Shown here piece after piece: positions 882 to 32,967 of a stretch of 64,000 nucleotides of DNA. Below the pieces are notes generated by a model. The model did not search any database. It was given only the letters and a program-made list of their open reading frames with translations, and was not told the DNA's origin. The position numbers and the translations under genes are program-made. Within the stretch, counting starts at the first letter, position 1; the number at the start of each line of letters is the position of its first letter. The stretch lies in the IMG/VR virus record IMGVR_UViG_3300032249_000861, positions 32,001 through 96,000 of that record. One strand, 5' to 3'. The DNA comes from a virus.

Positions 882-885
882 TACA

Positions 886-3249: not shown

Positions 3250-3283
3250 CAGACAATTTATTTAGGACAAGATAGGAAACAGT

Positions 3284-4027: not shown

Positions 4028-4041
4028 TTTTATGTATCATT

Positions 4042-4060
4042 TGGTGTAAGTCTTAATACA
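4042..4060 (+). promoter_or_regulatory. candidate late-promoter motif TGGTGTAA
   Basis: Same 8-mer at nearly the same distance (43 vs 42 nt) before the ATG as at 40503. Confidence 0.35.
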
Positions 4061-4084
4061 CGCACAATACAATGGGAGTTTCAA

Positions 4085-6560: not shown

Positions 6561-6583
6561 TTCATAAATATAGGAGATTTTAA

Positions 6584-7675
6584 ATGGCCAATAATAATAG
6601 AGTTTTTTACGGTTCTCAGGTAGCCCAACTAAAGCCAGCCACTACTGGCAATAACTATAGCGCTTGGTATCAACCTCTAGGCGTACAAAGTGTTGGATTT
6701 AATACCACTTTTGAAACAGAGCAAGCGTTTCAGTTAGGGGCTCTAGATATTTATGCCATTTCAGAAAATGTTCCTAATGTAGAAACAACAATGTCTAAGG
6801 TTCTTGATGGAACATGTCCACTATATTTAATGTGCATGGGCGGGGAGAACGGCATTAGTGGCGCAAACCTAACAGATTTCTCAGATGACCAAAAGAATAA
6901 TAAGGGGCTTGGTGCTTTAGCTAATAATACTGTTACTTTTAGACTTGGTATATATAATGATACAAAATCCAATGTTGCTGGAGAAACTAGCGACTGGGTT
7001 CAATGTTCTGGTATGTACTTATCAAGTTTAAACTACACCTTCCCTGTTGATGGTAATGCTACAGAAGAAATAACTTTAGTTGGAAACAACAAAAGATGGA
7101 GTCAGAATAATGCAGGCACTATGGGTAATATGACTGCTGTTGCCCCAACAGGAGAATATGCCATAGCCAAAAAACTAGCTCGTCGTCAATTTATTAATGT
7201 AAATGGTTCTACTATGCCTACTGGTAGTGGCGGTCTGCCGACCGGCGTAGCAACCAATGTTGACTTACATTTACAAAATGTTACCATTAGTGCTGATCTT
7301 GGAAGAGATCAAATTAATGAGTTAGGATCATTTGCTCCCTATCACCGCTACGCAACATTTCCTGTAGAAGTTACTAGCGAATTTGAAATGATTGCTACAG
7401 AAGGAGATTGGATTAGTGCTAATGACTTTTTATTCCAAAGCGGATGTGGAGTTAATTACACAAATACTGAGTCTCTACCAATTCAACTGCAAGTATGTGG
7501 CAGTGGTGACGCTACTTTAGAGATTTTCCTTGGTAGTGGTAATCAATTAACTTCCGTTAATTATACTGGGGGAGATACTAGTGGTGGAAACGTATCAGTA
7601 ACATATAGTTTCAGAAATTATAATGATTTCTATATGAAGGCTTCTGGTACATATGCTAGTGTTCCTTCGTTATAA
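6584..7675 (+). CDS. tail tube protein paralog 3
   Basis: Same motif set; strong AGGAG SD; shortest of the three. Confidence 0.7.
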   Translation: MANNNRVFYGSQVAQLKPATTGNNYSAWYQPLGVQSVGFNTTFETEQAFQLGALDIYAISENVPNVETTMSKVLDGTCPLYLMCMGGENGISGANLTDFSDDQKNNKGLGALANNTVTFRLGIYNDTKSNVAGETSDWVQCSGMYLSSLNYTFPVDGNATEEITLVGNNKRWSQNNAGTMGNMTAVAPTGEYAIAKKLARRQFINVNGSTMPTGSGGLPTGVATNVDLHLQNVTISADLGRDQINELGSFAPYHRYATFPVEVTSEFEMIATEGDWISANDFLFQSGCGVNYTNTESLPIQLQVCGSGDATLEIFLGSGNQLTSVNYTGGDTSGGNVSVTYSFRNYNDFYMKASGTYASVPSL

Positions 7676-10242: not shown

Positions 10243-13200
10243 ATGGCTACAGCTTTTAATTTGACAGCACAACTTAATTTACGCGGTCCAAATAATGTTA
10301 ACAAGATTGTTGCAGACATTAAAAAGCAACTAACTGGTATAACTGCTAATGTTAATTTAAAACTAGACCCTAACGTTGCTAAAAATGTTAAAGCTATTGA
10401 TTATTCGCTAAAATCATTAAATGCTACATTATCTAAAACAACTACAAATGCTGGTTCCGCAGCAGCTGCTATAGCCGCTTTTGGTAAAGCTGTTAATGCT
10501 ATTAGTATAAAAAATGTATCGCCGCAAATTAATGCTGCTGTAGCCAGCATGAATAAGCTAAATAAGTCAAGCAGCAATGTTTCTCAGTCATTAACTGAAT
10601 CAGCAACAGAAATGCAAGAGTTTGGAAAACAAGCAGGATTAGCTATTAGACGTTTTGCGGCATTTAGTGCTGTTACTGGAGTTATCTATAGTTTAAGTAA
10701 TAGTATTACTCAAGGAATTCAAGCATATATAGATTATGATAAAGAACTAGTTCGTTTACAACAAGTTACAGGCGAGACCGCTGGAGGTCTACAATTACTA
10801 CAAGACTCAATTTCTCAACTAGCAACAGGTTTCGGCGTTAGCTCAAAAGAATTAACAACAGTATCAGTTACACTAGCACAGGCCGGTTTAAGTGCTAAAG
10901 ATACCGAAAGAGCCTTAAGAGCACTAGCATTAAGTTCATTGGCCCCATCGTTCGATGATATGAATGAAACTGTAGAAGGTTCTATTGCTTTGATGAGACA
11001 GTTTGGAATTAGTGCTGGACAACTAGAACCAGCTTTAGGTTCCATCAATGCTGTTGCTGCTGCGTTTGCTGTAGAAGCCGATGACTTAATTACTGCTATT
11101 CAACGTACCGGTGGTGTATTCGCCACTGCTAGTAAAGGCGTTAGTGAGGGAACAGATGCTCTTAATGAGTTCATTGCTGTATTTACTAGTGTTAGAGCAA
11201 CTACTCGTGAAAGCGCAGAAACTATTGCTACTGGTTTACGTACTATTTTTACACGTATTCAACGAGGAAGCACCATTGATGCTCTCAAAGAATTCGGCGT
11301 TACTTTAACAGACTCAGAAGGTAAATTTGTTGGAGCGTATAAAGCTGTTCAGTTATTAAGTGAAGGACTGTCTAAAATAGACACAAGAGATATTAAATTC
11401 TCTAGAATAGTAGAAGAGCTTGGTGGTTTTAGACAGATTGGTAAGGTTATTCCTCTTATTCAACAATTCTCTGTTGCACAAAATGCTCTTAAGATAGCTC
11501 AAACAGGACAATCTTCTTTGGCTAAAGACGCATCAACAGCGCAACTATCATTAGCAAATCAAATTCAAAAAGTTCGTGAAGAATTCTTCGCACTATTCCG
11601 TGAAATTGGACAAAGTAAAGGATTCCAGTCATTGCTTACTGGGGTATTAACATTAACAAGAGGTCTAATTAAGCTTGCTGATGTCTCTAAGAGCCTACTT
11701 CCTGCATTAAGTGTTGTACTAGCGTTTAAAGGAGCTAGTGCTTTAACTCAGTTTGCTAGTGGTTTCAGTAAAGGCTTTAGACCTGGCGGCGGCAAACCAG
11801 AAAAAGAAAGACCGCGATTTGCAGATGGTGGACAAGTTAGATACTATGCTAAGGGAGGACATGTTGCTGGTAGTGGAAATTCTGATACGATACCCGCCAT
11901 GCTAACTCCTGGCGAGTTTGTCATAAATAAAAAAGCCGCACGAGCTGTCGGCTCTAAGAATTTAAATAGGATTAATAGATATGCTTCTGGTGGTAAAGTT
12001 AAAGATTTAGTTAATGATCCTAATGGTAAAAAATCTCTTAAAAAGGTCTATGATATAAATAAAGATTTTGATAGTTATGAAGATCCTACAATAGATAGAG
12101 TAGACCTCGACAAAACATATGATCAGTATACACAACAATCTAAACAGATTTGGTTAGAGGCTAATAAAAAATACAAACAAGATTTAGCTCAAGGATACAA
12201 ACCCCAAAAAGGAGACGTCCCCCAATTAGCAAATGCATATATAAAAAGAGAAACTGGTGGACTAGCTCAGAATCTTGGATTCAAAGAACTAAGAGAGCCT
12301 CAGACGGCTAAAAAATTAAATAAAATTCGTGGAGCTTTAGCTGAAAATGAAGTTAAGAAAAGATATAAATTAGGAAATCCTCTCGCTTTACAAGATGGGG
12401 CTGATTTTTATGATGCTAAAAATGACAGATTCGTAGAAATCAAAAATCAGAAAAAACAATTAAAAGATTCTACTCTGATATCAAAAACATTGCTAGCATT
12501 TGCTGCGAGAAAAGGAAACAAGTTAAATAATCAACCAGATTATGTTCCTAGTTTAAAAATTCTTGCTGTTGAAGCTCCAAGCCCAGACAAATATGATGAA
12601 TTTGAAGAAAAAAAACTTGGCGGACCAATTAATAAAAGAGTTAAACAAGCTGTTGACTTCAAGAACCTGCACAAGATTAATGGGTATGCTAAAGGTGGGC
12701 CTATTGCAGCAAATATTACTGATACTACAACAAGCGATGGAGATACATTAAATGTAAATTTTACACCAGAACAAAAACCATTTAATACTTTGAGCAGATT
12801 AGAAAATTGGGATGCTTTTGAAACAGATGATGTTCAAGGTTTCAAAATACCCGAATGGCAAAGAAAATTGGGTAGAGCGGCAGCGAAGGTTACTTCTGAA
12901 GAATACAATAAACAAGATGACAAAGCTTTGAAAGCGTTTAGGTCGTCAAACGGAGCTATGGATAATTATGGTCGCCCAATGTTTAAAGATGATAATTTGG
13001 GGTCAAAATTAAAAAACTTAGGATTAGCTATGCCATATAAAGGTAAAGGCAAAGCTCCTACCAAACAGCTATCAACATGGGGAGACTATAGAAATATTTT
13101 TGGATATGCTCCTTCACAAGCACCAGGATTACAAGGAGAAGAGATATCAGAAGATAAGGCTGTAAAAAAAGCTTTGGGAGGAATGATTCAAAAGTTTGAA

Positions 13201-16200
13201 GAAGGTGGAGTAGCTCAAAGAAAAGTTGGATATATTGATTATGATGTTATAGCTAATGAAGCTAATAAAGATATTGTAGAAAAAGGAATGAAAGAAACAG
13301 GATCTGATGGTCCTAGAATCTATTCAGACTATCTTACCAAATTAGCTGTTAATGCTAGGAAATCTTCTAGTATTCAAAAACTAAGAGCAATCTATGGTGT
13401 TGCTGGTAGTGGTAAAACAACACTAGCTCGCGGTCAAGGAACAGATAATGCTAGACTAAGAAAGACAGAAAGATTTCCAATTCTTAGTCCAGAAGATATT
13501 CAAAAAGCTACTGAAATATTAATCCTAACTAGTAGTGTAAGTCAAACTAAAATGGATGATTTCTTTGGTGATGTTGATAGAGCATATACATTAAGTTCGA
13601 CTACTGATGCAGAAAGAAGCAGAGTAAGGGATCAAAGAGGATCAAGAGATGTTACGGGGATTGGTTTAGAGGGTCGTCAGCCAGGAACTACTATGGGCGT
13701 TTCAGCAGATACTGCTGTTGGAGAGGCTTTATTATCAGATAAACTAGGAGCTAAATCTACAGTATTAGGAAGAAGTGGCTCTGGTAGACTAAGAAGAAAG
13801 AGCGGAAATGAATTAGTAGACATTGTCAAGAAGAGAATTGGTTTTACATGGGGTGGATTTGCCCCAACAACAGCTGGTCATGAATCAATTATGGATGCTG
13901 CTGCTGCTATGGGTATTCCTCCAGAAGACTTTATAGCACTAGTTGGAGCTAACGAAGCCGTAGACGCATCATCTTATCGCACAGCAATATTTGATCAAGA
14001 TTCCAGAGTATTGCTAGCCAAGGCTGGTTTTGGAGCAAAAGGAGCTACTGTACTTCCCAAGCCAAGAGATTTTGAAGTTCCTCAAGGTTTTGATATAACT
14101 CAACAGGGTTCTGATAGAAGACAAGTACTAATTCCCAGCCAAGGTAGTACAGCATTTGTTGCAGATAAAACAGAAGACCAGACAGCAAAATATAGACAAG
14201 CTGGATATGATGTTAAGAACATAGAACGAACCGGTGGTATTAGTGGCACAATGGTTAGAGATTTAATTATAGCTGGAGATATGGCTAAACTTCAATCAGT
14301 ATTGTCTCCTGGCGTATATGATCTTGTCTCGAATAACATAGGAAGAATACAAAATAGAGCTAGTGTTTTACCATCTCTTATAGAACAAGCTCAAAAAGAA
14401 GCACAAGCTGAAATGGGTCAGGTGGATCAACAGATAGAAGCTCTTGGAATCAAGAGAATAGATTCTAAAAAGTTGGAGAGTGACCCAGAATATGCAGCTA
14501 AAGTAGAAGTTCTTAAAGAGTTAAGAGCTAAAAAACAAAAGATCAAATCAGCTGCGGGATTCACCCCATATAAATTATTAGATGCTTTAGCCGAAAAAGA
14601 TCCGCAAAATTATGCATTGGACTTCTCCACATCATCTAACCTGGGTAATGTTCCAGACATGAGGGTCATGGGACAAAACTCACAAGCTTCAATACCAGCT
14701 GGTAGAGTTGCTCAATTAGCTCAAGAAAAAAATAAAAGTATTCAAGACGTTATACTAGAACAGCTAGGCGGATTGGGTGGTCCTGCTGGAGTTAAAAAAA
14801 TACTTGGCATAGGTAGTGGAGATAGAACATTAAGCTCATTATTACAAGCAGGAAATATTAAGGGAGGTAAAGGTCTAGACGAAGCAGCAGACTATGTTAA
14901 CAGAGCTTTAGCCGCTAGGGGTATAAGAGATGCTGCAGAAGCCAAAAGATTAGAGGAGTATCAAGCTAAGGCTCTTCATTTTGGTATTGCTGGTTTATTG
15001 CCAATGGATTACTCAAAAGAATTCGAATGGGATATTGGCGGTACCGATGTTTACGCTACTGCCAGAGGTTTTGGTAGTACGTATTTGGAAGAAGCAAAAC
15101 AAATGCAGAAGGAGTCATCAGAACTAGCTCAAAGATTTGCAGAAAATGTGCAAAATAAAAATATCTTTGGTGGTGGTGAAAAATTGGCTTTTGATTTTGA
15201 CAAAACATTAGTTGAGGATGCAGATATTCTTGATGCTAAGGGCAAGCCAGATATTGCAAAATATTCAAATAGAGAGGCTGTACAAGAAGCTCTCAAAAGT
15301 GCAAGACCAACCAGACTAGCAACTAAATTAAAATCACTCATAGAGCAAGATCCCCCATTTATTAAGAAAACCAGAATACTAACAGCTAGGCCACAAAGCA
15401 CAGCAGACCTTCTTGCACAATCATTACAAAGCTTTGGTCTTCCCTATGCCGAAACAGATATTACTGGAGTTAGTGGTGGCGTTAGTAGCAATATTCCTGC
15501 ATTAAAAGCTGCTAATTTACAGAAAGAAGAGAAACTTATTGATGATAGTTTAGATAATATTATGGCTGTTCGTAAAGCTGGTAAAAAAGGATTTCAATAT
15601 ACTGAACCCAAATCCACAACATCAGAACTAGACGAAAAAATGGGTCAGGGTAATATCGAGGGTGCTATAATAGAAAAAGCTTTGGCTGTTTTGGGTGCTC
15701 CAGTAAGGCCGGATGCTAAACAAAATAGAGCCATAGACTATCCAGACGGTTTAGGTAGTGCATCTCAATTCTTTCCTGGTATTGATCCTGGTATTCCAAC
15801 AGAAGTTAAAAGAACAATTGACGGTAGTAGTTTAGAGAAAGTTAGAGAAGAGATTGGAAGATACATAACAGGAGGAGCCCAAGCTGTTAAATTAGCTAGA
15901 GGTGGAGCCGTTCAAAGCTTTATGGCCGGTGGAGCAGCAACCAAAACCAGAAAAACAAAAGAGCCTTTCGGAACTGGTGAAACAGAATTTCCAACAAGAA
16001 TATCAAAAAAATATGCCGAAGAACAAAAAACTGCTGATGAATTTGCTAAATCTAAATTAGCATGGGATAAGTATCCTAAAGACGAAAGAATAATGGTTGA
16101 CGATACAAAAGTGCAAGAAGCTTATCAGCAACCATTCGATAGAGAAAGATTTGCTTCATCATTCAAAGAAAAAATTAGTCGCGACTCACTATTCCAAAGA

Positions 16201-25200: not shown

Positions 25201-28200
25201 ACAAGAGCTGCTAGCGGAGCTACTGAAGCAGCACTAGGGGCGGGCATCAGAGGAGCAACTAGTGGTGGAGATTTCGGTACCGTACAAGATGTTGGAATGG
25301 ACTTTATCTCTGGAGCTATTCTTCCGTCTCCTAATTTTGGAGGTAAGGGATCAAAAAACTATAATATTCCAGAAGGTCCAGCAAAACCCAAAACAGAAGC
25401 AGTCGCTTTAAAAGAACTTGCTAAAACAGTTAAGGCTGAACAACGAGCAATCACAGAAGAAAATGTTCTTGATGGTGCTGAAATATTAGCAACAAAAAGA
25501 AAACAAGAAGAAGTTAGAAGAGCAGCACAAGAAAAACAAAGAGTCAGAGATGAAGCAGAAGCAGTGAAAGAATCAGGAAGAGAAAAGGCTGTTTTTGATG
25601 TTTTCACTATTGGAGGAAGATTAAGTGATGATAATATAGCCAGTGCCCTAAAGTCAGCCAAGGAAAAAACTGTAACAGGAACCAAGTTACTAACCGGCAA
25701 AGTTACCGGCAAGCCTAGGGGAGATTTAATAGAGCAGAATCCTACACTAGCTAGTAGACTAGGGGTGTCAACTCCAGGATTAGATGCTGTCAAGAATGGA
25801 CAAAATATAACAGCAAAAGATTTAGTTGCAAAACTAAAAGATGAAGGTTTTAGTGAAGAATATGCTAAGAAGGTCTCAAGAGAGCGTACTCTTAAGATGG
25901 TATCAGATCTTGCTACCGAACGATCAAAAAGAAAAGATGAATCAATACAACAAGTGGCTTCTGAATATAAAGACGCTGTAACTGGTGTTGAAGATCCTAA
26001 TAAGCGAGCCAAAATTAAGGCTAAATTTCAAACCAGACTGCAAAAAGAACTATCGTCTATAGTATCTGACACTAACGACAGAGCAGAAGCATTTGATTCT
26101 GGTATGACGGTTCAAGAACTTAAAAAACAAAGAGCAGCAGAAGCTCAAGCCAAAGATAAAGCAGAGTCTGATAAATTAATACAAGAGTTTGATTCTACTC
26201 TAGGATCAAGTAAGCCAATAACTATTGATAATCCGCCCATCGGAGAACCTCTCGATCTAGGAGTAGACCCACTCGCACCAATAACGTCTGCCAGGGATAA
26301 TGCCGCTACTACGGCAGCTAGTACAAAACCGATATCAACAGAAGAACAGTCTCCGGTTGGAGAAACCACAATTCCTCAGCCTAATAAAGATGCTGCTGAT
26401 ACCGTAACTGCCGGTACAAAACCAGTCGATGCTGCAACAGTAGCAGCAAAAAACCAGACAGTAGTCAAGGCAGCAGAACAAGAAAATACATCTTCGCTAC
26501 AAACATCAGCGATACCGCAGCCCAAACCCTATAATCCTACAGATTATCCTATTATGGATAGTATTATGAGAGGAGGAAAGAACGGCCATTATGGTCCGAT
26601 GGGTACTACTAATATAACAGGTAAACAAAATATTCATGGAATAAGCGGATGGAAAACTAGACTCATACCAAAAGACGACGCGTCTGCAGCAAAAATTAAA
26701 GAATTTTTAGATACTCATCCAGATATAGGGTCATATAAGTTAGCATTAAATGAGGGACCAGTACCAGTATTTAGTGTCTATTTCAAAAAAGGCACCAAAG
26801 ATGAAGCACTATCTTTTGCACAAGCTAGTGAAAAAGGACTAAAAGATAGTTTAGATCCTCGTTTATATCAGGGTGCTGATACTCTGCTAGAAGGGACAAA
26901 TATTTCCGCAAGATTTGATGCTAGAGATCTAAAGAATAAATCAGCATCATCAATTATAGATAGACAACTAGAGAATTCTCCTTTTAGTAGAGGATTTTTA
27001 AAAGCTGAAGAACTGAATCTACAAATACTTCCATCAAATACGGCACCTGGGTCAACGGCTAGCAGAGCAATGCCAAACATTACTGCTGGCACCAGAGGAG
27101 TACCAGATACCGGGTATGTTGATTGGTTAAAAACAAAAAAGTTTTTGGCGAAAGATCCTAAAAAGATAGCTAGTCTAGATGCAGAGATACAAAGAGCTAC
27201 TAACGTAGCAGATGATTGGCTAAAAGAAAATATGTCCGACATCTACAGCGCATCTGCTGAACGAACAGCTAGAGAATCAACAGGCCCACAACAACAAGCA
27301 GTAGTTGAAACAGCAACAAGAGACGCTACGAGCAGGCCAACCAAATCCGGTTTTGTTCGAGATAAATCATTACCGATAAACGAAGTAGACGATCTAGCTT
27401 CTGCCGGATTTGGAGTTATAAGCCCAGACCAAGAAGTAGAAAGTGTTATAAGGGGTGCAAGAGAAAATTTTCTTGGCTCTTTAACTAAACCAGCAGCATT
27501 ATTACAGCCAGAAACATACCAAAAATATGCAGACCAACTATTAGAACTAGAAAAATCAGGAAAAATAAAAATAACCAAAGGCGCTTCATTTGGTACTAGT
27601 GGCCAACCAAGTATATTTGTAGGAAAACCAGAAAATGTAGATATTCTTGCAAAAGCTTTTGAATCTGAAACAGCAAGGACACGAGAAACGAGAGGTTCAA
27701 CATCAAATGAATTTAAAGAAACGGTAGGAAAAGCATTAGGATATAGTAAAGATAGTATAGCCCTACATATATTAGAAAAAGATTGGGATAAAGCAGGATT
27801 AGATATAGACACTATTCAAGATAGATTACAAGTTAGTCGTGGTGCTGCTGCTCGGTATATGGTATCAGAAATTAATAAAGCTAAAGAACAAGCATCAGTT
27901 GAGCAAGGAGTAAAAGAATCAATAAACCCGCCCATCAAAGATCCTATTACTGGAGATGAATTTGAATTAGGACCTGGAGATGATTTTCAATTAGGAGGTC
28001 TTGGAGAAGATCCGTTGGCACCGGCTCCTATAATAAAACCAGAAAATGTATTACCTGAAGCAAGAGCAGAATCAGAAGCTCGTAGAGCCGAAACAGCAAC
28101 CTCACGAACTAAATCTAGTATTGTTGATGAAGATGAGTTTGTTTTAGGAGACATGGAAGATGATAGTACTGTCGTAGCTGTTGAGCCTGACGATGGTTCG

Positions 28201-31200
28201 AACTTTTTTGGAGAAGCATTCGCTGCCGCCGCACAAGAAGCCAGAGCCATAGAAGCAACAAGGGCTCAGATTGAAACCAACGATAAGTTTGTTGTTGACC
28301 AGCCTGATATGATGACAGCTTCAGAGCTTGACCCAATAACAAGAGCTTCTAGTAGGAGGGTTTGGGGATCTGATAAGGCTTTTGAAAATATGCCCAAACC
28401 CAAAATTTCTAGAGAAAAAGTCAAAGCACTAGACACTGGCGAGCCTGACGAGATGACAGCTTCAGAGCTTACTCCTCTACAGAGGGCCGTTATTAATAAG
28501 TCATTCGGACTTGATTCTGATAAAGGTTTCGAATTGCGAGAACAACTTATAGCTCAAAAAAGAGAAGCAGATATACTTCCAGAAGACTTTTTTCCAAACG
28601 GTTCATCAAGAACAGAAACTCCATTATCTTCAGCTAGAACAGAAGCAGAAGCTAAGAATCCTGGTACCGTATTTGAAGGACAGTTAGAAGCAGCATTAAC
28701 CGATGCTTCTTCTCCAGAAGCTTTAAAAGCTTCTGCAGAAGCTCAACAAAGATTAGCAGCACAAAAATTAGCAGCAAAATCTCCAGAACAAATATCTGTA
28801 GAAAAAACATATGGTCCTTTATATAGAGAAGCTAAAAAAGCTAATGATACAGCGGAGATGGCCAGAATACGATTAGAAGCTAATGCAGAATTTAAGAAAC
28901 GCTCTCAAGAAGCTTCTACAAGATCTGAAGATAAAAAGAACAATTTCCTTCCTGTTATGGGTAGGGTCTTAAAGATAGCCGCCCCAATCGGATCAGCTAT
29001 TGGTTATGGACTAGGATCGTTATTAAGTGGTTCTATGGGCAGAAAAAAAGAAGAACCTCAAGATTTAGCTTCTAGGTTAGAAAATGCTTCTGATCTACAA
29101 GAAGTTTTTGATCTTTTAAAACTAGCAGAAAAAGACAAGATAGGAAACCCGACTAATCCTTTAAGAGAAATAGGCGGATCATCCCCACTTATTGCTAAAT
29201 TACAAAAACTAGCTCCAGAAATATATGGTAAAAAAGGTAGTGACTATTTTAGCTCTCAAGACTTAGCAGCTATGCCGGAAGACGCATATAATGAGAATTT
29301 TCTAGAAAGATTAAAAGATAATGCAACATTCGAGAAGATGAAAAGAGAACAAAAGGTAGCTGAACCTGCTCGCTTAAAGAGTGATGAGGCTGCACGGGCT
29401 ACAACAAGAGATCTTATAACGCAATGGTCTCAAGACTTTGCTATGGCGGGTAATGATGTCCGAACTCCTCCAGGTTCTGATCCTAAAAAAGCTAGAAATC
29501 CGTTAAAAGCCATGTCACGAGAAATGGCAGAAAGAGCACAAGAAAGAAGAAGTGGATTCCCCACAGACGATCAAGGAAACGATCTACAGATAGGCACTAT
29601 GATTCCCGCCCCGATATCGGTTTTAGATCGTACAAAAAATGATGCTGCAGCGATGAGAGAAATTGACGAAAAAGATAATAATGCTGCTCCGATGCTGGAA
29701 GTTAAGAAACCAGTAAAGAAATCTCTTGGGGGTTTAATTTATGCGTCGAAAGGAACCTTAGTAAACTACCAACCTCGTGGAACTGACACAGTACCAGCAA
29801 TGTTAACTCCGGGCGAGTTTGTTGTTAATGCCAGAGCAACAGCAGATAACTACCCATTACTAAAAGCTATTAATAGCGGAACTAACGTTGATACTACTGC
29901 TAATATGAGTAAGGGCGGTGTGGTTTATGCTCAAGAAGGAGCATTAGTACCTAGCTTCGGAATGCATATTCCATCTTTAGATCCAGACAAAAATACTAAA
30001 TTAACCCTATTACCAGAAAGCTCTTTAGATCAAGCAAATACAAAAGAAGCTTTTCGAGAATATGGAAACGCTCGACCTTCCTATCAATCAAGACCACAAC
30101 TACCAAAGCCAACTGTTCAATCAGGATCTTTTAAAGAAGGAGTTCATGATAGAAATTCTGTTATAAAAGATAGTGAATATTCTAGAAGTTTAAAGAGAAT
30201 GGGTATTCCACACGTATCACAGAGTGGTGGATCTAAAACCTATTTGGATCAAAATGGCAGAGAAATTTCAGCAAATGAATTTAAACTTTTACCAGAAACG
30301 TCTTTTAATCATCCAGAATATGCAGTCATGCGTAGCAGAGCAGCTTTTGCTGCTGGAGCTGCTAAGTCTGTTGTTCCTCAAATGGGGGCTACGTCTGGGG
30401 CTATAGCAGGAGCAGCTGCCGGAGCCGTATTAGGACCTCCCGGAGTAATTGCCGGAGGCTTGATTGGAGGTTTGACTGGTGGTATAATGGGATCGGCATT
30501 ACAAGAAACAGCATTAGATATAGCAAATCCAGAGGCTAACGCTATAGCTAATCAACTAATGGATCAAAATCCCGTATCAGCAATGGCAGGATCAGCAGCA
30601 GGAGACATTGCAACAGGAGGATTACTATCATTAGCCTTGCCTTCTATACCAACACCAACAAGGGCTGGAGATTCAATGGTTGGTCCCGGAGGACTAACAC
30701 CAAAACAAATAAAACATGCTGAAAAAGGATTAAATAGACCCATATCAGAAGCGATTACTCCGTTTACAGGAATGAAAGGATTTGGAGGTCGTTATGTTGA
30801 CGGTCCAATAAGTGTTGATCAGTTAGTATATAAATCCAGAGACAACTTGGCTGAGAGTATTCATTACTCTGGGGCAGATCCCAAAACATTTGATTCATTA
30901 ACAACAAGATTAACAGAACCTGTTCCTGGAGCTCTTGGTGATTATTACCAGGGACTAAGCAGGATATCTCCTAAAGCTCCTCCAGAACATATTATTGGAA
31001 CAATAGCTCATGAGGCTGGCCATCATTATCAAACAATGAAGGACCCTACTGGAAGATTCGTAAAAACTTGGATGTCAGATAATAGAGATCAAGCAAGTGA
31101 CTGGATTTTAAAAAGAACATCCTCTCCTCAATATCTTGAAACTGCAACTCCAAGAAACCAGGTGAATTATGGAGTTAATGATATGCTGAGTGGGGATTTT

Positions 31201-32967
31201 TATAAACAGAGACAAATGGAACAATTAAGAAAAGAGTTTGGAGAGGATGGTTTTAAGACTTTATTAGAAGACTCGTTAGCACATACTCTAGGGGCTGGTA
31301 AAAAAGGCATAGCTGGAGATGTAAATTCAGCACTAAGATTTGAGTCTCAAAACTATATTCGCGGCAGAACTGGTGGCAGATATGGCGAAGCAGGACTAGC
31401 ATTTGGAGGCGAAGACCTGTCTCGCATAGATCCCGATATAATGGCAAAGGTTGGAGTAAGAGCTCCACAAACCTTAACAGGTCACGACAGAGTTTTAGAC
31501 GCTATGACAAGATATGGTCAGGATAAGGGTTTTGCATTTCCTAATTTTGTAGATAATGCAGAAGTGTCTGGTAGACAAGAATTTCTTACGTCTATGTTCC
31601 AGGATTTAGGAGGAGCAGATAAAGAAGCCAGAGGATTATCTCAAGGATTAGTCAAATTTATCGAAACTAAGGGTGGAGAAGGCGTAAAAATGACTCCACC
31701 GCCACTTCCTCCATCTCCACCACCACTTCCTGTTAATAGATACGCAAATGGCGGAATGGTCAATATGTCTGAAGGTAACAAGATTCCATCCGAAGTATGG
31801 GCAATAGGTACAAAATATACAAATGTTATGTCTCCTGAAGATTTTGAAAAACGCAAAGTCATTAGACCAAAATTATCTGATGATAGTACCTATGATACCC
31901 CCAAGGTTTTTAAAGACTATCACGAAGCACATAAAAAACCTATTAGTATTGATCCAGCATTACTAGATAAACAATCTTCTTTCTCTAAGTATTTACAGTC
32001 TGGCGGTCGAAGAATGTCTAATAATGTTGAAATTGCACCAAAATTAACCACAGATGAAGTATTACAATATTTTCAAAATATAAAAGCAAAAGAACGTCGT
32101 GAAGGTTCTCCTCCTGCTGGTGGTAGGGTTCAATATGCAACTGGTGGAATAGTTTATGCAAATAATGGTGCCCTCATAGCTGCACAACCAATGGGAACTG
32201 ATACTGTTCCAGCGATGCTAACTCCAGGAGAATTTGTTGTCAAAAAAGAACAAGCTCAAAAACACGCTCCAATATTACATGCTATAAATAGTGGAGCTTA
32301 TAGTAGGGGTGGTATTGTTAATTATTTGGCTAATGGTGGTATTGTTAATCCAAACTATTTATCTTATGGTGGCTATGCCAAAATGGGAGAGCAAGATCGT
32401 CGAGATCCATTAAAAGAGATGAGTCAGAGAGTAGCAGAATATAACGCCGCTGCAGCACCTCAACCAGTACCACTTCCTGCTCCAGCCCCAGTTCAAGTTC
32501 CATCTCCAGCACCAGTTGGTGGTGTATCTAATAATATTGGTATAGATTTAGCTGGTTTGCAATCAATAGTGGCTAATTTCCAGAAAACGGTCAATGATTT
32601 TGGAGCATCGGTGCCTTCGCTTTCACAAGTGGCAGAGAGTATGAATACTGGTTTTAGTTCTTTCGTAACAGGAGGATCTCAAATAGGAGAGATGTTAAAT
32701 AGTGCAACAGCTGGTTTACAACAAGTTAATCTTCCTGATAGGATTAGACTAGAAGGTTCAGTAAGTAATAATGTAAATATTAACGGTGCTGAAGCAGCCG
32801 CTAGGGTTATGGATACTATGGGCGGTGCTATTCAACAGGGCGCAAATGAACAAATAGGCAGATTCGCCGGAGCTATTAATAGAGGTATTGGTAATTTGGG
32901 TGAAGGAGCATTAGGTCCAGATACTGGTCAAATTATGGGTCAAATAGGTGGTTCAAATTATGCTTAA
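10243..32967 (+). CDS. giant (7574 aa) tape measure protein / multi-enzyme polyprotein
   Basis: N-terminal TP901-type tape-measure core (YDKELVRLQQVTG...LAQAGL...ETIATGLRTIFTRI...LKEFGV), long helical stretches, five DT.PA.L.PGEF modules, and many embedded enzyme motifs. Confidence 0.9.
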   Translation: MATAFNLTAQLNLRGPNNVNKIVADIKKQLTGITANVNLKLDPNVAKNVKAIDYSLKSLNATLSKTTTNAGSAAAAIAAFGKAVNAISIKNVSPQINAAVASMNKLNKSSSNVSQSLTESATEMQEFGKQAGLAIRRFAAFSAVTGVIYSLSNSITQGIQAYIDYDKELVRLQQVTGETAGGLQLLQDSISQLATGFGVSSKELTTVSVTLAQAGLSAKDTERALRALALSSLAPSFDDMNETVEGSIALMRQFGISAGQLEPALGSINAVAAAFAVEADDLITAIQRTGGVFATASKGVSEGTDALNEFIAVFTSVRATTRESAETIATGLRTIFTRIQRGSTIDALKEFGVTLTDSEGKFVGAYKAVQLLSEGLSKIDTRDIKFSRIVEELGGFRQIGKVIPLIQQFSVAQNALKIAQTGQSSLAKDASTAQLSLANQIQKVREEFFALFREIGQSKGFQSLLTGVLTLTRGLIKLADVSKSLLPALSVVLAFKGASALTQFASGFSKGFRPGGGKPEKERPRFADGGQVRYYAKGGHVAGSGNSDTIPAMLTPGEFVINKKAARAVGSKNLNRINRYASGGKVKDLVNDPNGKKSLKKVYDINKDFDSYEDPTIDRVDLDKTYDQYTQQSKQIWLEANKKYKQDLAQGYKPQKGDVPQLANAYIKRETGGLAQNLGFKELREPQTAKKLNKIRGALAENEVKKRYKLGNPLALQDGADFYDAKNDRFVEIKNQKKQLKDSTLISKTLLAFAARKGNKLNNQPDYVPSLKILAVEAPSPDKYDEFEEKKLGGPINKRVKQAVDFKNLHKINGYAKGGPIAANITDTTTSDGDTLNVNFTPEQKPFNTLSRLENWDAFETDDVQGFKIPEWQRKLGRAAAKVTSEEYNKQDDKALKAFRSSNGAMDNYGRPMFKDDNLGSKLKNLGLAMPYKGKGKAPTKQLSTWGDYRNIFGYAPSQAPGLQGEEISEDKAVKKALGGMIQKFEEGGVAQRKVGYIDYDVIANEANKDIVEKGMKETGSDGPRIYSDYLTKLAVNARKSSSIQKLRAIYGVAGSGKTTLARGQGTDNARLRKTERFPILSPEDIQKATEILILTSSVSQTKMDDFFGDVDRAYTLSSTTDAERSRVRDQRGSRDVTGIGLEGRQPGTTMGVSADTAVGEALLSDKLGAKSTVLGRSGSGRLRRKSGNELVDIVKKRIGFTWGGFAPTTAGHESIMDAAAAMGIPPEDFIALVGANEAVDASSYRTAIFDQDSRVLLAKAGFGAKGATVLPKPRDFEVPQGFDITQQGSDRRQVLIPSQGSTAFVADKTEDQTAKYRQAGYDVKNIERTGGISGTMVRDLIIAGDMAKLQSVLSPGVYDLVSNNIGRIQNRASVLPSLIEQAQKEAQAEMGQVDQQIEALGIKRIDSKKLESDPEYAAKVEVLKELRAKKQKIKSAAGFTPYKLLDALAEKDPQNYALDFSTSSNLGNVPDMRVMGQNSQASIPAGRVAQLAQEKNKSIQDVILEQLGGLGGPAGVKKILGIGSGDRTLSSLLQAGNIKGGKGLDEAADYVNRALAARGIRDAAEAKRLEEYQAKALHFGIAGLLPMDYSKEFEWDIGGTDVYATARGFGSTYLEEAKQMQKESSELAQRFAENVQNKNIFGGGEKLAFDFDKTLVEDADILDAKGKPDIAKYSNREAVQEALKSARPTRLATKLKSLIEQDPPFIKKTRILTARPQSTADLLAQSLQSFGLPYAETDITGVSGGVSSNIPALKAANLQKEEKLIDDSLDNIMAVRKAGKKGFQYTEPKSTTSELDEKMGQGNIEGAIIEKALAVLGAPVRPDAKQNRAIDYPDGLGSASQFFPGIDPGIPTEVKRTIDGSSLEKVREEIGRYITGGAQAVKLARGGAVQSFMAGGAATKTRKTKEPFGTGETEFPTRISKKYAEEQKTADEFAKSKLAWDKYPKDERIMVDDTKVQEAYQQPFDRERFASSFKEKISRDSLFQRMSDFAKFVGLPEEDLSVALPLQLDFGASKRGGGLGMFAAAQFEKGATGIRPYEGYDLSKFGYGEKQKQEAYGLEKLITAKEKEIAKIRKTPTETYDDGSFSFDSEAFQKTSIELDSLKNRLFKLKDLKRDAEKAALSEQNTTSSAAGRGTISFASSMGYSSDTKNSTLYHEMTHQLFQGLRTKSAGSFDKYRDRVSSLFSGDNDDLADAFDSLTAGGGYSSADVVYGRSYKSNNLSQILSSYYRQNLDFSRSAATIPQDTTKNLASLSTQSTAAKRAREYRPINPRVNEALLQAGDKFGMTQEKIDRMEDNGKEEFLTTLMEKAPQLDQNLQGILDSTLTELLSGAGIQRQKYAAGRKVDYESGVGVSPFGGSISKRLSESVYNLQKGTGLSDPEFNEIKKTADTYGYNEEEFKEYLAKRIQEKKNKQGLRASPSALAQQLMQQKTVSTPKQLALAETLKGEPDAGYRPIPTAAERIASDRMAVQNATRRFASGGTVSALVSNGEAYVPPKIAKRIGYGNLNRMNQADRNGMSKFSSGGISVFKGPGTGTSDSIPANLPVGSFIIREKATKALGLNKGGAVPAQRFATGGSVTSMIMEWLSSDMTAGTKPKMPQRPDIVSRATVTASSDTTKELDNLVKSLNAVGFSAKESADILNRGGQVSYKTIEKALVKDIERLKKSTAGIDQITQAETTLARIRNQTKKDVGSKQKMEEAFRGSGRSSGSVQQEIYSTAMSMGEQNIEAKEAARRKKIPQIEKRERKKLIESKREDFIEKEYKNQVAKEQKTKGRKLTSTEKDKVRSDAELKGNTKTFKLTTEEKTNVKATAQAKTTLSAEERTKEYNKAALRATTSVTGASKSELAAKNVKGSDILRYAQESMRDRKTLAEMDKQFVAMAMDEYKNRGTVNGIVVKSAAEAKKAAEEEISKRREAINARASQNGEKGVGAAGLRDYRNSPILNQIKGFIKSPGRVMGGVSVAAGLAAGSSDMIAKNMYDMSTTEGQGKAAKTSAAIQSSGTILSTGLAAASQMATIPVIGPYVAALTAVGTAAAAAADYFYDFTGAQKAATVEFERSVRAKEIGIAMDGLDRAFQNFEKDMGNIDLQNALEKSLGGASSLQIKDNMAERDNAKAEFSLKNRSWSDIFSGNFKGSAKMDALQQGAMDSEMSQKITPIADKAMSLYEKQISSGKSIQDIVNNVRTGNKEAGAAGFAVAASVNPKLWSELEAKIAKSGDTSEQNREKIQKEIAARELLTNVQLQSIERMAKLNKEMDAADRAGRRLAETFEHIGETIDQSIQRMQRESQIRQAQANDRVEARRGNAGFDERAVNNRNVGVLTSPKAYQNDPGRIEEAIRAGTTGMSPELAQKMAGGARLEATLPNVMRNAVSSELKTNANLDLAEAADAARKKGTEAIQRSGLSEADQKVAIDKLNTKLNSEQEKAQKEGGDSPRQKVDFFIDSVSELGPEIANIFGNAGKRLDDIIQARQGIYDTFAKNLQAASEAAKKAREFFSKARDIRYNAGMDLREAQTGVGESYAEAKAKSDSSIARLTGGVTDPQAIGRNIDALTARRDQQMKARDAAASDPNLTPKQQEDAAIKFAKDIQATNNALNDNREALDKLANSAEVAQKALDEVKNIRGLQQDRENFVNQLLTNTPAEADKLNQSFIRLQRNLSGGLNNASNQRDARNAFNDTLRRTGNLREATRAGNTVLADQRKQTLQLMQDPGFRGMMTLNMKNQGMNDQQIDKKFRDQESMLMQQMAVESGMINNPMVRQALAAKQDPNADPAMKRAAEQFLQSTGLQAKATEEQGRLELANVQSLLITSTDDLRTSIDALTTSINASLGPDGERVPGAVGPMVPVPAGARGAGPIGRPIRRATGGKVNTQYASTGKLIDFSPKGTDTVPAMLTPGEFVVNAKATADNYPLLKAINNGTNLVGNTAMMSKGGVVYLDNGGLIDEFRRIDSNSSNFLEVGEIDLKMMQLLDTDKDNKVSFREYSARAKSGGSGSSRSGQRSPVNSSFKADNLSFKAYSNAREEKYSKRYEGTRDRFPRETEKFSSGGLVTPYYLQDGTEKPLSKRPFMVKMEKPEDPLEAAERRRARALKASHPEITRVRQPSLVPGDPRALRHKESFYRLDVNSDGVLDAKEGRPHPELDRDLDRRITLEEWDGIDPGEFDPDDSSHVLRDSKGNPLTPGLMGSPFEKRHRSLMASVAMDEEKLAKGEPLVDSNGKPIDLASKRKELAIFNAQSGLYNTSQSLIARQKNIDDSLTKRLTGGGSLRNPDSSYAVTREFNKIRDRRSAFEEERRGQRAKDENATDEEIFDRTVEAYGQGDSDYWRSMGVTEAPNSYDESNTLNFIRSGDRLASRGDPYGDKARAYIDGYIASQGARQQQDRVDIGMGRPTISPDKAVVGTQGPVDDLNYLIDRNEVGRAVKYKAEQAKTEEENKQRDDAQVKQAEKQASLEKRDKELGIDTSGINRDIYESGGGFSNQPGSGRKVTVEEQTQRKRERAIADRFSFTDKTGKYSTAGTIDKVDFEKGTVKIAKMDPKTGEPITRTVPVFAGGETEEAIKASGRDPRRFKVGEKEEQVYTTVPLDKLSDKSRDKVRSYGLEKEADKAKTGENFTVGTSFEDYKGKIFRVDEKSEKVIVQKEDGKLVSVPMGIIDPETKNIALDQAKTATTVTDLTQKQMDADIGNIDFTSSLPEPQVPLIEDFTDRANEVRQETMNNAALEQTKMDQLPVMSEPVPTSGTIDPLTGKVVGNNVSMDLNPDGTRTPEQLNILNQQATRDADRRNSNARYEELRARSKAESSYDRSWFGENWPKEWGGVSKPEKRLTRKELEELGAMESERGVPALSRLGANTRVEQTRRNAGLDEAQIESLSQQKTEQFKAELEKKNDAEGGVAVGLAAQRAVVPLLAGATAVAAAPALVPAGVIGAGLTIAGGVGFSLGANKLQDVALEGTDFDKRQKELAEKRPGATAVGSLLPGLLTGNPLTGATTLRQALATRAASGATEAALGAGIRGATSGGDFGTVQDVGMDFISGAILPSPNFGGKGSKNYNIPEGPAKPKTEAVALKELAKTVKAEQRAITEENVLDGAEILATKRKQEEVRRAAQEKQRVRDEAEAVKESGREKAVFDVFTIGGRLSDDNIASALKSAKEKTVTGTKLLTGKVTGKPRGDLIEQNPTLASRLGVSTPGLDAVKNGQNITAKDLVAKLKDEGFSEEYAKKVSRERTLKMVSDLATERSKRKDESIQQVASEYKDAVTGVEDPNKRAKIKAKFQTRLQKELSSIVSDTNDRAEAFDSGMTVQELKKQRAAEAQAKDKAESDKLIQEFDSTLGSSKPITIDNPPIGEPLDLGVDPLAPITSARDNAATTAASTKPISTEEQSPVGETTIPQPNKDAADTVTAGTKPVDAATVAAKNQTVVKAAEQENTSSLQTSAIPQPKPYNPTDYPIMDSIMRGGKNGHYGPMGTTNITGKQNIHGISGWKTRLIPKDDASAAKIKEFLDTHPDIGSYKLALNEGPVPVFSVYFKKGTKDEALSFAQASEKGLKDSLDPRLYQGADTLLEGTNISARFDARDLKNKSASSIIDRQLENSPFSRGFLKAEELNLQILPSNTAPGSTASRAMPNITAGTRGVPDTGYVDWLKTKKFLAKDPKKIASLDAEIQRATNVADDWLKENMSDIYSASAERTARESTGPQQQAVVETATRDATSRPTKSGFVRDKSLPINEVDDLASAGFGVISPDQEVESVIRGARENFLGSLTKPAALLQPETYQKYADQLLELEKSGKIKITKGASFGTSGQPSIFVGKPENVDILAKAFESETARTRETRGSTSNEFKETVGKALGYSKDSIALHILEKDWDKAGLDIDTIQDRLQVSRGAAARYMVSEINKAKEQASVEQGVKESINPPIKDPITGDEFELGPGDDFQLGGLGEDPLAPAPIIKPENVLPEARAESEARRAETATSRTKSSIVDEDEFVLGDMEDDSTVVAVEPDDGSNFFGEAFAAAAQEARAIEATRAQIETNDKFVVDQPDMMTASELDPITRASSRRVWGSDKAFENMPKPKISREKVKALDTGEPDEMTASELTPLQRAVINKSFGLDSDKGFELREQLIAQKREADILPEDFFPNGSSRTETPLSSARTEAEAKNPGTVFEGQLEAALTDASSPEALKASAEAQQRLAAQKLAAKSPEQISVEKTYGPLYREAKKANDTAEMARIRLEANAEFKKRSQEASTRSEDKKNNFLPVMGRVLKIAAPIGSAIGYGLGSLLSGSMGRKKEEPQDLASRLENASDLQEVFDLLKLAEKDKIGNPTNPLREIGGSSPLIAKLQKLAPEIYGKKGSDYFSSQDLAAMPEDAYNENFLERLKDNATFEKMKREQKVAEPARLKSDEAARATTRDLITQWSQDFAMAGNDVRTPPGSDPKKARNPLKAMSREMAERAQERRSGFPTDDQGNDLQIGTMIPAPISVLDRTKNDAAAMREIDEKDNNAAPMLEVKKPVKKSLGGLIYASKGTLVNYQPRGTDTVPAMLTPGEFVVNARATADNYPLLKAINSGTNVDTTANMSKGGVVYAQEGALVPSFGMHIPSLDPDKNTKLTLLPESSLDQANTKEAFREYGNARPSYQSRPQLPKPTVQSGSFKEGVHDRNSVIKDSEYSRSLKRMGIPHVSQSGGSKTYLDQNGREISANEFKLLPETSFNHPEYAVMRSRAAFAAGAAKSVVPQMGATSGAIAGAAAGAVLGPPGVIAGGLIGGLTGGIMGSALQETALDIANPEANAIANQLMDQNPVSAMAGSAAGDIATGGLLSLALPSIPTPTRAGDSMVGPGGLTPKQIKHAEKGLNRPISEAITPFTGMKGFGGRYVDGPISVDQLVYKSRDNLAESIHYSGADPKTFDSLTTRLTEPVPGALGDYYQGLSRISPKAPPEHIIGTIAHEAGHHYQTMKDPTGRFVKTWMSDNRDQASDWILKRTSSPQYLETATPRNQVNYGVNDMLSGDFYKQRQMEQLRKEFGEDGFKTLLEDSLAHTLGAGKKGIAGDVNSALRFESQNYIRGRTGGRYGEAGLAFGGEDLSRIDPDIMAKVGVRAPQTLTGHDRVLDAMTRYGQDKGFAFPNFVDNAEVSGRQEFLTSMFQDLGGADKEARGLSQGLVKFIETKGGEGVKMTPPPLPPSPPPLPVNRYANGGMVNMSEGNKIPSEVWAIGTKYTNVMSPEDFEKRKVIRPKLSDDSTYDTPKVFKDYHEAHKKPISIDPALLDKQSSFSKYLQSGGRRMSNNVEIAPKLTTDEVLQYFQNIKAKERREGSPPAGGRVQYATGGIVYANNGALIAAQPMGTDTVPAMLTPGEFVVKKEQAQKHAPILHAINSGAYSRGGIVNYLANGGIVNPNYLSYGGYAKMGEQDRRDPLKEMSQRVAEYNAAAAPQPVPLPAPAPVQVPSPAPVGGVSNNIGIDLAGLQSIVANFQKTVNDFGASVPSLSQVAESMNTGFSSFVTGGSQIGEMLNSATAGLQQVNLPDRIRLEGSVSNNVNINGAEAAARVMDTMGGAIQQGANEQIGRFAGAINRGIGNLGEGALGPDTGQIMGQIGGSNYA
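12300..12600 (+). other. TMP cassette: PD-(D/E)xK-like nuclease domain 1
   Basis: G..AE (GALAENEV), ADF, VEIK motif order. Confidence 0.55.
12700..13040 (+). other. TMP cassette: staphylococcal-nuclease-like (thermonuclease) domain
   Basis: DGDT...RLENWDAFE...G.AA...DNYGR...L.N.GLA. Confidence 0.8.
13380..13700 (+). other. TMP cassette: P-loop nucleotide-kinase-like domain
   Basis: Hydrophobic strand followed by GVAGSGKTTLA; later RxxxR-like lid (RSRVRDQRGSR). Confidence 0.7.
13830..14340 (+). other. TMP cassette: HIGH-superfamily (cytidylyltransferase-like) nucleotidyltransferase
   Basis: GGFAPTTAGH (TxGH) and ISGTMVRDLI (ISxTxxR) signature motifs. Confidence 0.8.
15181..15600 (+). other. 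TMP cassette: HAD-family phosphatase
   Basis: Motif I LAFDFDKTL, motif II ILTARP, motif III K (ALKAA), motif IV LIDDSLDNI. Confidence 0.8.
15640..15870 (+). other. TMP cassette: PD-(D/E)xK-like nuclease domain 2
   Basis: EGAIIE, AIDYP, TEVKRT motif order. Confidence 0.45.
16240..17250 (+). other. TMP cassette: zincin-like metallopeptidase 1
   Basis: GTISF strand, TLYHEMTHQLF at 16708, downstream EEFLT helix. Confidence 0.65.
21883..22035 (+). repeat. conserved TMP junction module, near-identical in protein to the copy at 29779-29928
   Basis: GTDTVPAMLTPGEFVVNA(K/R)ATADNYPLLKAIN.GTN....TA.MSKGGVVY in both; other copies at about 11880, 17850 and 32195. Confidence 0.9.
22060..22690 (+). other. 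TMP cassette: two EF-hand pairs
   Basis: DSNSSNFLEVGE / DTDKDNKVSFRE and DVNSDGVLDAKE / DRDLDRRITLEE loops. Confidence 0.7.
23731..24210 (+). other. TMP cassette: two SHD1 (SLA1 homology domain 1)-like domains
   Basis: FSFTDKTGKYSTAG...TVKI.K...VPLDKLSDKSRDKV; second copy YKGKI.RVD..KVIVQKEDGKLVSVPMGIIDPET. Confidence 0.65.
30900..31670 (+). other. TMP cassette: zincin-like metallopeptidase 2
   Basis: LGDYY, TIAHEAGHHY at 31009, downstream QEFLT helix matching EEFLT in peptidase 1. Confidence 0.65.

Follow-up and report, generated by a model that had tools for sequence, protein, structure and literature searches.

A phage tail protein of 7,574 amino acids (aa) that is studded with di-glycine motifs raises the question what these motifs delimit and whether the chain is cut at them. 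The protein is a tape measure protein (TMP), the product of a single open reading frame (ORF) on the plus strand (positions 10243-32967) of a 64-kb stretch of DNA, which was analysed as a whole and is called the window here; the window is part of the 110-kb IMG/VR virus record IMGVR_UViG_3300032249_000861. A preliminary description of this DNA had interpreted about 30 motifs of the type [FYLM]-x-x-G-G as a protease cleavage code that sits at cassette boundaries, frees each enzyme and might also provide the units at which new cargo is inserted. Our analysis leaves little doubt that a conserved TMP junction module, or its short form, has these motifs as its edges, and that they delimit swappable cassettes. 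The whole reading, which takes the motifs as edges of junction modules between exchangeable cassettes and in which the chain, as we infer, is cut there, seems fairly probable to us. That the TMP chain is indeed cut at the joints after tail assembly is, taken by itself, a plausible proposal that still falls short of being likely.

All 24 GG motifs of the preliminary description, together with YAAGR, were found at their places in the TMP ORF. This list has 25 items and not about 30, and YAAGR is not a GG motif but a degenerate copy, in place of which the orthologues have YAAGG, YASGG or FALGG. Compared with 300 composition-preserving shuffles, in none of which the observed counts were reached, the TMP contains 32 [FYLM]xxGG motifs (8.7 expected), 20 [FY]xxGG motifs (3.1 expected) and 11 [FY][AS]xGG motifs (0.55 expected). 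The density of [FY]xxGG is 2.64 per 1000 aa in the TMP versus 0.63 in the 20 other large ORFs of the window, and the excess is confined to 11 short junctions. These junctions make up 530 aa in total and contain 22 of the 32 [FYLM]xxGG motifs. The other ten, FTWGG at aa 1201 and LTAGG at aa 2199 among them, are located inside cassettes, where the motif has background density (1.42 per 1000 aa versus 1.65 in the other ORFs). The suggested test of motif enrichment at junctions against cassette interiors and other ORFs thus gave the expected concentration in the junctions.

The residues that flank the motifs were compared with background frequencies. Two residues downstream of GG, 21 of the 24 motifs have an aliphatic or aromatic residue (background 25%), in agreement with the hydrophobic residue noted before, and the basic residue that was said to precede the motifs is found at position -1 in 12 of 24 (background 14%). 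The motifs do come in pairs, but not 9-25 aa apart as proposed, since the spacing is bimodal: tandem copies lie 8-11 aa apart, and motifs on either side of a central core 40-66 aa.

This core belongs to a conserved module of about 70 aa. Most of the motifs are the edges of this module, of which the TMP has six copies with a DTVPAMLTPGEFV core. The core is near-identical (G-T-D-T-V-P-A-M-L-T-P-G-E-F-V-V) in five junctions, one of which, junction E, is a tandem pair. A hidden Markov model (HMM) seeded on five clear copies yields the 6 modules of the TMP and 240 modules in 66 proteins of the family. The N-terminal half of the module consists of GG-[IV][IV]-[FY]-A-x-G-G, a Gly/Pro-rich spacer of 8-20 residues and D-T-V-P-A-M-L-T-P-G-E-F-V-[IV]. 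In the C-terminal half, the core is followed after about 12 residues by L-x-x-[IML]-N, [YF]-x-x-G-G-x-V and [FLY]-A-x-G-G, so that up to four GG motifs can be present per module. Across the family, [FY]xxGG occurs 19.4 times per 1000 aa inside modules and 1.04 times outside (0.44 expected), and two thirds of all [FY]xxGG motifs lie within the module. The orphan motifs outside modules have the consensus GG-x-[IV]-Q-[KR]-F-A-x-G-G-x-[AV], which is the N-terminal edge of the module alone. A free-standing short code, as originally proposed, is therefore not what we observe, since the motifs are the edges of a conserved module or of its short forms and the core is better conserved than they are.

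Purifying selection on the protein sequence maintains the module. Copies F and H have 78% DNA identity over 130 nucleotides, 16 codons differ synonymously only, and the core peptide is identical. These copies are therefore ancient and preserved through selection on the peptide. Recent DNA repeats were considered as a source of the motifs and rejected, the module copies having 61-78% DNA identity with many synonymous changes. No Pfam family covers the module stretch (Tape_meas_lam_C stops at residue 701 of lambda gpH), and our literature searches found no published description of the junction module. Ordinary TMPs, lambda gpH for example, have a single module close to the C-terminus. In the family of giant TMPs the number of modules ranges from 2 to 9, and in complete relatives with at least four modules about 70-430 aa, in most cases 130-260 aa, separate the last one from the C-terminus, whereas relatives with two modules differ. 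Many relatives (in the sets L004-L083 and P0003-P0041) have a module spacing of about 1,000-1,300 aa, for example with modules at aa 511, 1710, 2977, 4049 and 5203, which looks like a concatenation of several TMP units of the lambda type.

Two tests that make no use of the motifs bear out their location at cassette boundaries. In a comparison with 65 IMG/VR relatives, 43% of the internal endpoints of BLAST homology blocks of at least 130 aa were found within 10 aa of a listed motif (7% expected), and with 31 long relatives that were retrieved by an unrelated query the value was 47% (5.7% expected). AlphaFold2 models were calculated for aa 970-1880 (37-row alignment, mean predicted local distance difference test (pLDDT) 83.6) and aa 1860-2600 (13 rows). 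They contain confident domains at aa 990-1462, 1487-1873 and 1906-2348, and pLDDT is below 50 at junction C (aa 970-988), at junction D (aa 1860-1905) and at the YAAGR/SPFGG junction (aa 2349-2367). According to these models, the joints are located in flexible linkers between independently folding cassettes.

The sequences of about 100 giant TMPs also show that the joints are points of cassette insertion, deletion and reordering among related phages, and the earlier suggestion that the motifs are units of cargo insertion agrees well with this. L005 and L086 together give the closest full-length relative (6,454 aa), in which aa 837-976 and about 6507-7154 of our TMP are missing, and the borders of both missing blocks are at junctions B/C and H/I-J. 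In four relatives (L012, L013, L014 and L077) a cassette with an HExxH motif (HExxH cassette 1) is located before the cassette with P-loop and nucleotidyltransferase, the reverse of the order found here. There, the two are joined by a single Q-x-Y-A-x-G-G-K-V, of which YAAGR is the degenerate counterpart.

All genes of the window lie on the plus strand, and so do the features described below. Junction A (11776-12015, aa 512-591, HMM envelope 526-591) is a full module in which FRPGG, FADGG, YAKGG, the DTIPAMLTPGEFV core and YASGG follow each other, and 32 homology-block ends are located near it at aa 585-599. Junction B (12610-12699, aa 790-819, KKLGG ... KNLHKING-YAKGG) is a half module without core that resembles the C-terminal half; the cassette at aa 837-976, which the closest full-length relative is missing, has this junction as its left border. 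With KALGG-MIQK-FEEGG, junction C (13168-13209, aa 976-989) is a double-GG mini-joint with low pLDDT and 16 homology-block ends at aa 975-989, and GG-x-IQKF-x-x-GG precedes the same cassette in 17 relatives in which the contexts differ. Junction D (15862-15933, aa 1874-1897) is a triple tandem of YITGG, LARGG and FMAGG with a spacing of 9-10 aa. It has a pLDDT below 50 in both AlphaFold2 models and 17-20 homology-block ends at aa 1875-1919, and its orthologues retain Q-x-F-[AM]-x-GG. The relative P0007 (6,575 aa) has the N-terminus MAGGVATKTRK, which lies inside the F-M-A-G-G joint; this most likely reflects gene calling on a truncated contig and not a natural start at the joint. The degenerate junction YAAGR ... 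SPFGG (17257-17316, aa 2339-2358) comes with 17 homology-block ends at aa 2340-2354.

Junction E (17659-17976, aa 2473-2578) consists of two overlapping modules (HMM envelopes 2473-2528 and 2514-2578) with FASGG, FSSGG, LNKGG and FATGG, a tandem pair that recurs in many relatives. Junction F (21814-22056, aa 3858-3938) is again a full module matched by the HMM, with RATGG, the core, MSKGG and LDNGG, and 30 homology-block ends are located at aa 3930-3944. A single FSSGG (22354-22368, aa 4038-4042) comes after a segment with EF-hand-like loops (aa 3966, 4117 and 4136), in a region that is covered by one relative only. Junction H (29719-29949, aa 6493-6569), a full module with KSLGG, the core and MSKGG and an HMM match, is the left border of the block of about 650 aa that is missing in the closest full-length relative. 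Near a single YANGG (31741-31755, aa 7167-7171), the homology with relative R805 resumes at aa 7154. The terminal module, junction J (32110-32373, aa 7290-7377), was also matched by the HMM and contains YATGG, the core, YSRGG, LANGG and LSYGG; about 200 aa remain from there to the C-terminus, as in lambda gpH.

The junction module is found in cultured phages as well. A profile of 50 module sequences (A2) was searched against all PDB sequences and matched only tape measure proteins, namely lambda gpH at residues 732-794 (8iyk_H, E 1.6e-5) and gp16 of mycobacteriophage Douge, with two matches at 961-1035 and 1411-1469 (8zdo_S, E 8e-14). The module HMM gives 21.5 bits on lambda gpH, the sequence of which reads FATGG ... 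PAGIVHRGEFVF ... GVGNLYRLMRGYATGGYV, and the profile match includes both [FY]-A-x-G-G edges, FATGG and YATGG, as well as the G-E-F-V core. A tblastn search with one module copy had matches in 71 records of cultured phages; among the 40 of these that were listed, every annotated match is in a tape measure or tail gene, which a few of the RefSeq entries name "endolysin".

Lambda gpH resembles the TMP described here also in its arrangement, since a glycine-rich hydrophobic stretch (691-712) is followed by the module (732-794) and a C-terminal tail that binds the tip (PMC12617516). It has one module and no cargo, whereas here six modules and about five short joints are present with cassettes between them. 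Mycobacteriophage TMPs, such as TM4 gp17, Douge gp16 (PDB 8ZDO) and many others found by tblastn, carry the module too, and small functional inserts inside the TMP have been documented for them (PMC1796659). They differ in size (about 1,100-1,700 aa), contain one or two modules and small cell-wall motifs, and are without a multi-kilobase string of enzyme-sized cassettes.

Both TMPs for which processing is documented are cut at or beside such a motif. Lambda gpH loses a C-terminal piece of about 14 kDa by a cut in its glycine-rich region, at the module or slightly upstream of it, after tail assembly (PMC12617516); a cut at F733|A734 would give a piece of 12.5 kDa and a gpH* of 79.8 kDa. T5 pb2 is cut after R1127 into pb2* and pb2C (PMC10038345), in the context FVPR|AEGGMMYPG, which is one of only five xxxGG sites in its 1,219 residues. 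The R|A-E-G-G-M-M of T5 resembles R|A-T-G-G-K-V and F|A-D-G-G-Q-V here, and the local pattern of a basic or aromatic residue, A-x-G-G and a hydrophobic residue is found in our TMP at aa 526, 580, 2477, 2572, 3858, 7167 and 7298, among other places. In T5 the cut is located after a hydrophobic stretch and frees a functional C-terminal piece (PMC10038345), and the same sequence of a hydrophobic stretch and then a joint is present at junction A and in lambda (PMC12617516), but T5 pb2 has a single site and no cassette array. The TMP of TM4, which carries the module, has been described as probably processed (PMC1796659). Our literature search found no further mapped TMP cut sites beyond those of lambda and T5.

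Based on these similarities we propose that the TMP would be synthesised and enter the tail as a single chain and would be cut at some or all of the joints during or after tail assembly, similar to the conversion of gpH to gpH* and gpHC and of pb2 to pb2* and pb2C. The cut would most likely fall between an aromatic (or basic) residue and A-x-G-G, and the tail would then hold a train of separate proteins that exit ahead of the DNA. The protease could be a host enzyme, a separate phage enzyme or the module itself, and would not generally be an HExxH domain of the TMP. A more general version, which we put forward as tentative, is that the lambda-type module might be a general element for assembly-triggered TMP processing, possibly self-cutting. 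Multiplied as it is here, it would make the ruler double as a polyprotein that, once the tail has been measured, is cut at each [FY]|A-x-G-G into separate enzymes and membrane-active pieces, which would enter the host before the DNA, and the same joints would serve as connectors for cassette exchange.

The adenovirus protease, pS273R of African swine fever virus, the ubiquitin-like proteases and the C39 bacteriocin leader peptidases are cysteine proteases that are encoded alongside their substrates and cut after GG. Their di-glycine substrates are like the joints here in having GG with a hydrophobic residue two or three positions upstream, and the preliminary description had drawn this analogy for the first three. 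It is not supported here, because those enzymes cut after GG, whereas the T5 cut, the only mapped one in a TMP, lies before A-x-G-G, three residues upstream of GG; in addition, the window ORFs gave no match to any such protease family. A protease search that covered the window but not the other 46 kb of the genome detected no peptidase family in 19 window ORFs or the TMP, and almost nothing in this phage matches any family at all.

Several observations weigh against cutting at the joints, or against the motif as a universal border mark. The core DTVPAMLTPGEFV is conserved to 80-97% and the GG motifs to 50-87%, so that a folded or binding element fits better than a short protease site. In none of 80 loci is the TMP split into separate genes at a joint, and a search of the 19 neighbouring ORFs of the window found neither a protease nor a gpK-like JAB/NlpC protein. 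The position of the lambda cleavage is known only as the glycine-rich region, the site itself being unmapped (PMC12617516). The module HMM, run with filters off, finds nothing in T5 pb2, and an hhalign comparison of pb2 with the module aligned 7 columns (RAEGGMM with RATGGKV) at a probability of 0.3%; since homology is undetectable, the T5 match is a likeness of five to seven residues that was found after the fact. The linker between two domains at aa 1463-1486 has no GG motif and yet is a homology breakpoint, so the motif marks most cassette borders and not all. Furthermore, gp96 of Thermus phage P23-45 (5,002 aa, with a fused virion RNA polymerase), the one giant cargo-bearing TMP for which there is experimental work, brings an active enzyme into the host through the tail and is full-sized in virions (PMC10770324), and its polymerase is thus not cut off, being reported as part of the full-sized protein. 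This TMP has no module according to the HMM and no motif enrichment.

Taken together, such data would also agree with joints that are structural only and never cut, acting as a folding, hinge or docking element, which we regard as possible, if somewhat doubtful. The module could be a binding site for the tail assembly chaperone, for the lumen of the tube or for the tip of the tail, or could hold the three TMP chains in register, with the GG motifs as tight turns at its edges, and cassettes would recombine at joints because only breaks in linkers give viable proteins. The conservation of the core above that of the motifs, the unsplit TMPs and the fused cargo of P23-45 all speak for this, as does the fact that the lambda module remains in the virion within gpHC (PMC12617516), and the tandem repeats of 9-11 aa, Y-x-x-G-G-[IV]-V-x-Y, resemble strand-turn units. 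Against it, the module is predicted at low confidence in the AlphaFold2 monomer (aa 1860-2600), with a pLDDT below 40. A prediction with three copies (50-row alignment) had a score of 0.01, which leaves the fold uncertain and is uninformative either way. The module is also not resolved in the cryo-electron microscopy maps of lambda (PMC12617516) and Douge (PMC13033339), and the location of both documented TMP cuts at or beside such a motif favours cutting over a purely structural role. A chance or composition effect of glycine-rich linkers, for which one could cite the 8.6% Gly of the TMP and a 1.5-fold over-representation of GG, is refuted and has practically no probability left: the shuffles never reached the observed counts, the bias is specific to positions -3, -2 and +2, the motif is conserved at orthologous joints of relatives, and there are 19 motifs per 1000 aa in modules defined by the HMM and 1 per 1000 elsewhere.

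If the chain is cut, the enzyme might be part of the TMP. The protein contains two HExxH domains (aa 2156 and 6923), the motif is invariant in 13 orthologues, and Iyer et al. 2017 have proposed that polyvalent proteins of phages and plasmids process themselves with zincin-type domains (PMC5512222), so that these zincin-like domains could cut the joints in cis. This is improbable, as HExxH is absent from 14 of the 17 complete family TMPs that have 2-6 modules, and lambda gpH is processed and has the module although no enzymatic activity is known for it (PMC12617516) and its sequence contains no HExxH; an HExxH of the TMP can therefore not be the general protease, and the zincin fold itself was not confirmed by a Pfam or PDB fold match. 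Autocatalytic, assembly-triggered cutting by the module, via its invariant Asp/Glu or the conserved Asn of L-x-x-[IML]-N-x-G, is in our view slightly less probable still. It would agree with the fact that no protease is known for TMP maturation in lambda (PMC12617516) or T5 (PMC10038345), with the near invariance of D, G, E and N across the 240 modules and with the presence of the module beside the putative cut site in every context. On the other hand, the module resembles no known self-cleaving fold and has no conserved Ser, Thr or Cys nucleophile beside the motif, and the idea is purely inferential.

The processing of TMPs is known in lambda and T5, and where lambda gpH is cut, by which protease and for what purpose are questions forty years old. 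The sequence beside the lambda cut is now seen to be a portable module that is repeated up to nine times in a large family of uncultured phages, exactly where cargo cassettes are exchanged. This gives a concrete prediction that is cheap to check in lambda, TM4 or Douge, namely new N-termini starting with A-x-G-G. Cutting at the joints would make the tail lumen a device that delivers a programmable set of enzymes, and would make the joint a natural connector for engineering cargo delivered by phages. Without cutting, the module is still a conserved part of TMPs that has no earlier description and lies outside the Pfam families.

A related concept is that of the polyvalent proteins of phages and conjugative elements (Iyer et al. 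2017, PMC5512222), in which many effector-type domains are combined in variable architectures in one virion-associated polypeptide. The TMP described here likewise has several unrelated enzymatic domains in one phage polypeptide, and its architecture varies among relatives. Here, the carrier is the tail ruler (the word "tape" is nowhere in that paper), a dedicated, conserved joint stands between the cassettes, and most members of the TMP family are without the HExxH that would correspond to the zincin-like domain proposed for the proteolytic release of polyvalent proteins (PMC5512222).

Concerning the cargo itself, the labels given in the preliminary description were only partly recovered. Nucleotidyltransferase and HAD folds were found and the EF-hand is weakly indicated, with Pfam matches of the EF-hand-like loops below the curated cut-off; nuclease, SNase, kinase, peptidase and SHD1 were not recovered by family or PDB sequence searches. 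Searches of the whole TMP against Pfam, PHROGs, NCBIfam and PDB sequences returned nothing beyond the TMP core, PHROGs of tape measure proteins and EF-hands below threshold, and in three complete relatives Pfam detected the TMP core only. The block at 13210-14628 (aa 990-1462) has a Walker-A P-loop and a HIGH-type nucleotidyltransferase fold modelled with pLDDT 80-96, and its position varies among relatives. It is followed by a block with a HAD-type phosphatase fold in a confident AlphaFold2 model (14701-15861, aa 1487-1873). Foldseek searches with the model of aa 970-1880 returned a PPAT/NMNAT-type nucleotidyltransferase (E 5e-5, template modelling score 0.6-0.66) and the AphA class B HAD phosphatase (E 3e-4). 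The sequence motifs TAGHE at aa 1210 (nucleotidyltransferase) and DFDKT at aa 1651 (HAD) agree with these matches, and a Walker A motif GSGKT is present at aa 1055. In the ESM Atlas, aa 985-1880 matched only a viral cluster without name, at 0.76. The P-loop, nucleotidyltransferase and HAD content of 13210-15861 suggests nucleotide or cofactor metabolism as injected cargo. There are no motifs between these three domains, and the claim that the motifs free each enzyme was therefore overstated.

HExxH cassette 1 (15958-17286, aa 1906-2348) is a confident AlphaFold2 domain and a candidate zincin with HEMTH at aa 2156; HExxH does not vary across 13 sequences. A search of 1.84 billion representative proteins found only 42 homologues of this cassette (aa 1893-2345, window 15919-17277), nearly all as full-length matches inside proteins of 3,000-7,300 aa, at positions from about 100 to 4,500. 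Foldseek and VIA-align comparisons of its model gave no zincin or PDB fold match, and matches to helical hairpins with Z<8 are uninformative. Being almost confined to giant TMPs and without a PDB match, it may be a TMP-specific domain family. The second HExxH motif, HEAGH at aa 6923, is part of a cassette (29950-31740, aa 6570-7166) that also has a hydrophobic stretch at aa 6718-6753, is missing from R805 and has no family or PDB sequence match. About 2,500 aa between modules F and H (22057-29718, aa 3939-6492) are shared with one of about 100 relatives; this region contains a single FSSGG joint, EF-hand-like loops and long acidic low-complexity tracts.

The identity of the protein as a tail length tape measure protein is supported by family profiles. 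Its core at aa 188-382 matches Pfam PhageMin_Tail PF10145 (E 6.9e-22, 78.7 bits with a cut-off of 33.2), and there are matches to PHROG 28 (E 4e-29) and PHROG 4211. More than 220 IMG/VR contigs encode relatives of its N-terminal part or the same giant ORF, which is therefore real and part of a large uncultured family with TMP sizes from 1,962 aa to more than 7,000 aa. No close cultured phage was found, a megablast search of the head region against cultured phages giving no match. The N-terminal TMP core (10243-11775, aa 1-511) is common to all 65 relatives. According to hydropathy, its last part is a hydrophobic stretch (aa 475-504) that immediately precedes the first joint. A helical "ruler" segment (17980-21813, aa 2580-3857) is common to 20-45 relatives and includes a hydrophobic stretch at aa 3002-3038. 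In total, five membrane-like hydrophobic Gly/Ala-rich stretches are present, at aa 475-504, 3002-3038, 4882-4933, 6235-6253 and 6718-6753 (11665-11754, 19246-19356, 24886-25041, 28945-29001 and 30394-30501). An ordinary TMP has about two.

Upstream of the TMP, an open-ended ORF at the start of the window (3-881) matches a proprotein-convertase P-domain (E 1.1e-7). The remaining upstream ORFs of the window have no Pfam match above the curated cut-off and no PHROG match, so that no chaperone or tube gene was identified there. Directly downstream of the TMP, a protein of 1,176 aa (32988-36518) contains an FGE-sulfatase/SUMF1-like domain (E 1.8e-10), and a protein of 827 aa (36538-39021) contains an fn3 domain (E 1.3e-11); these two large proteins are probably tail-tip or receptor-binding proteins.

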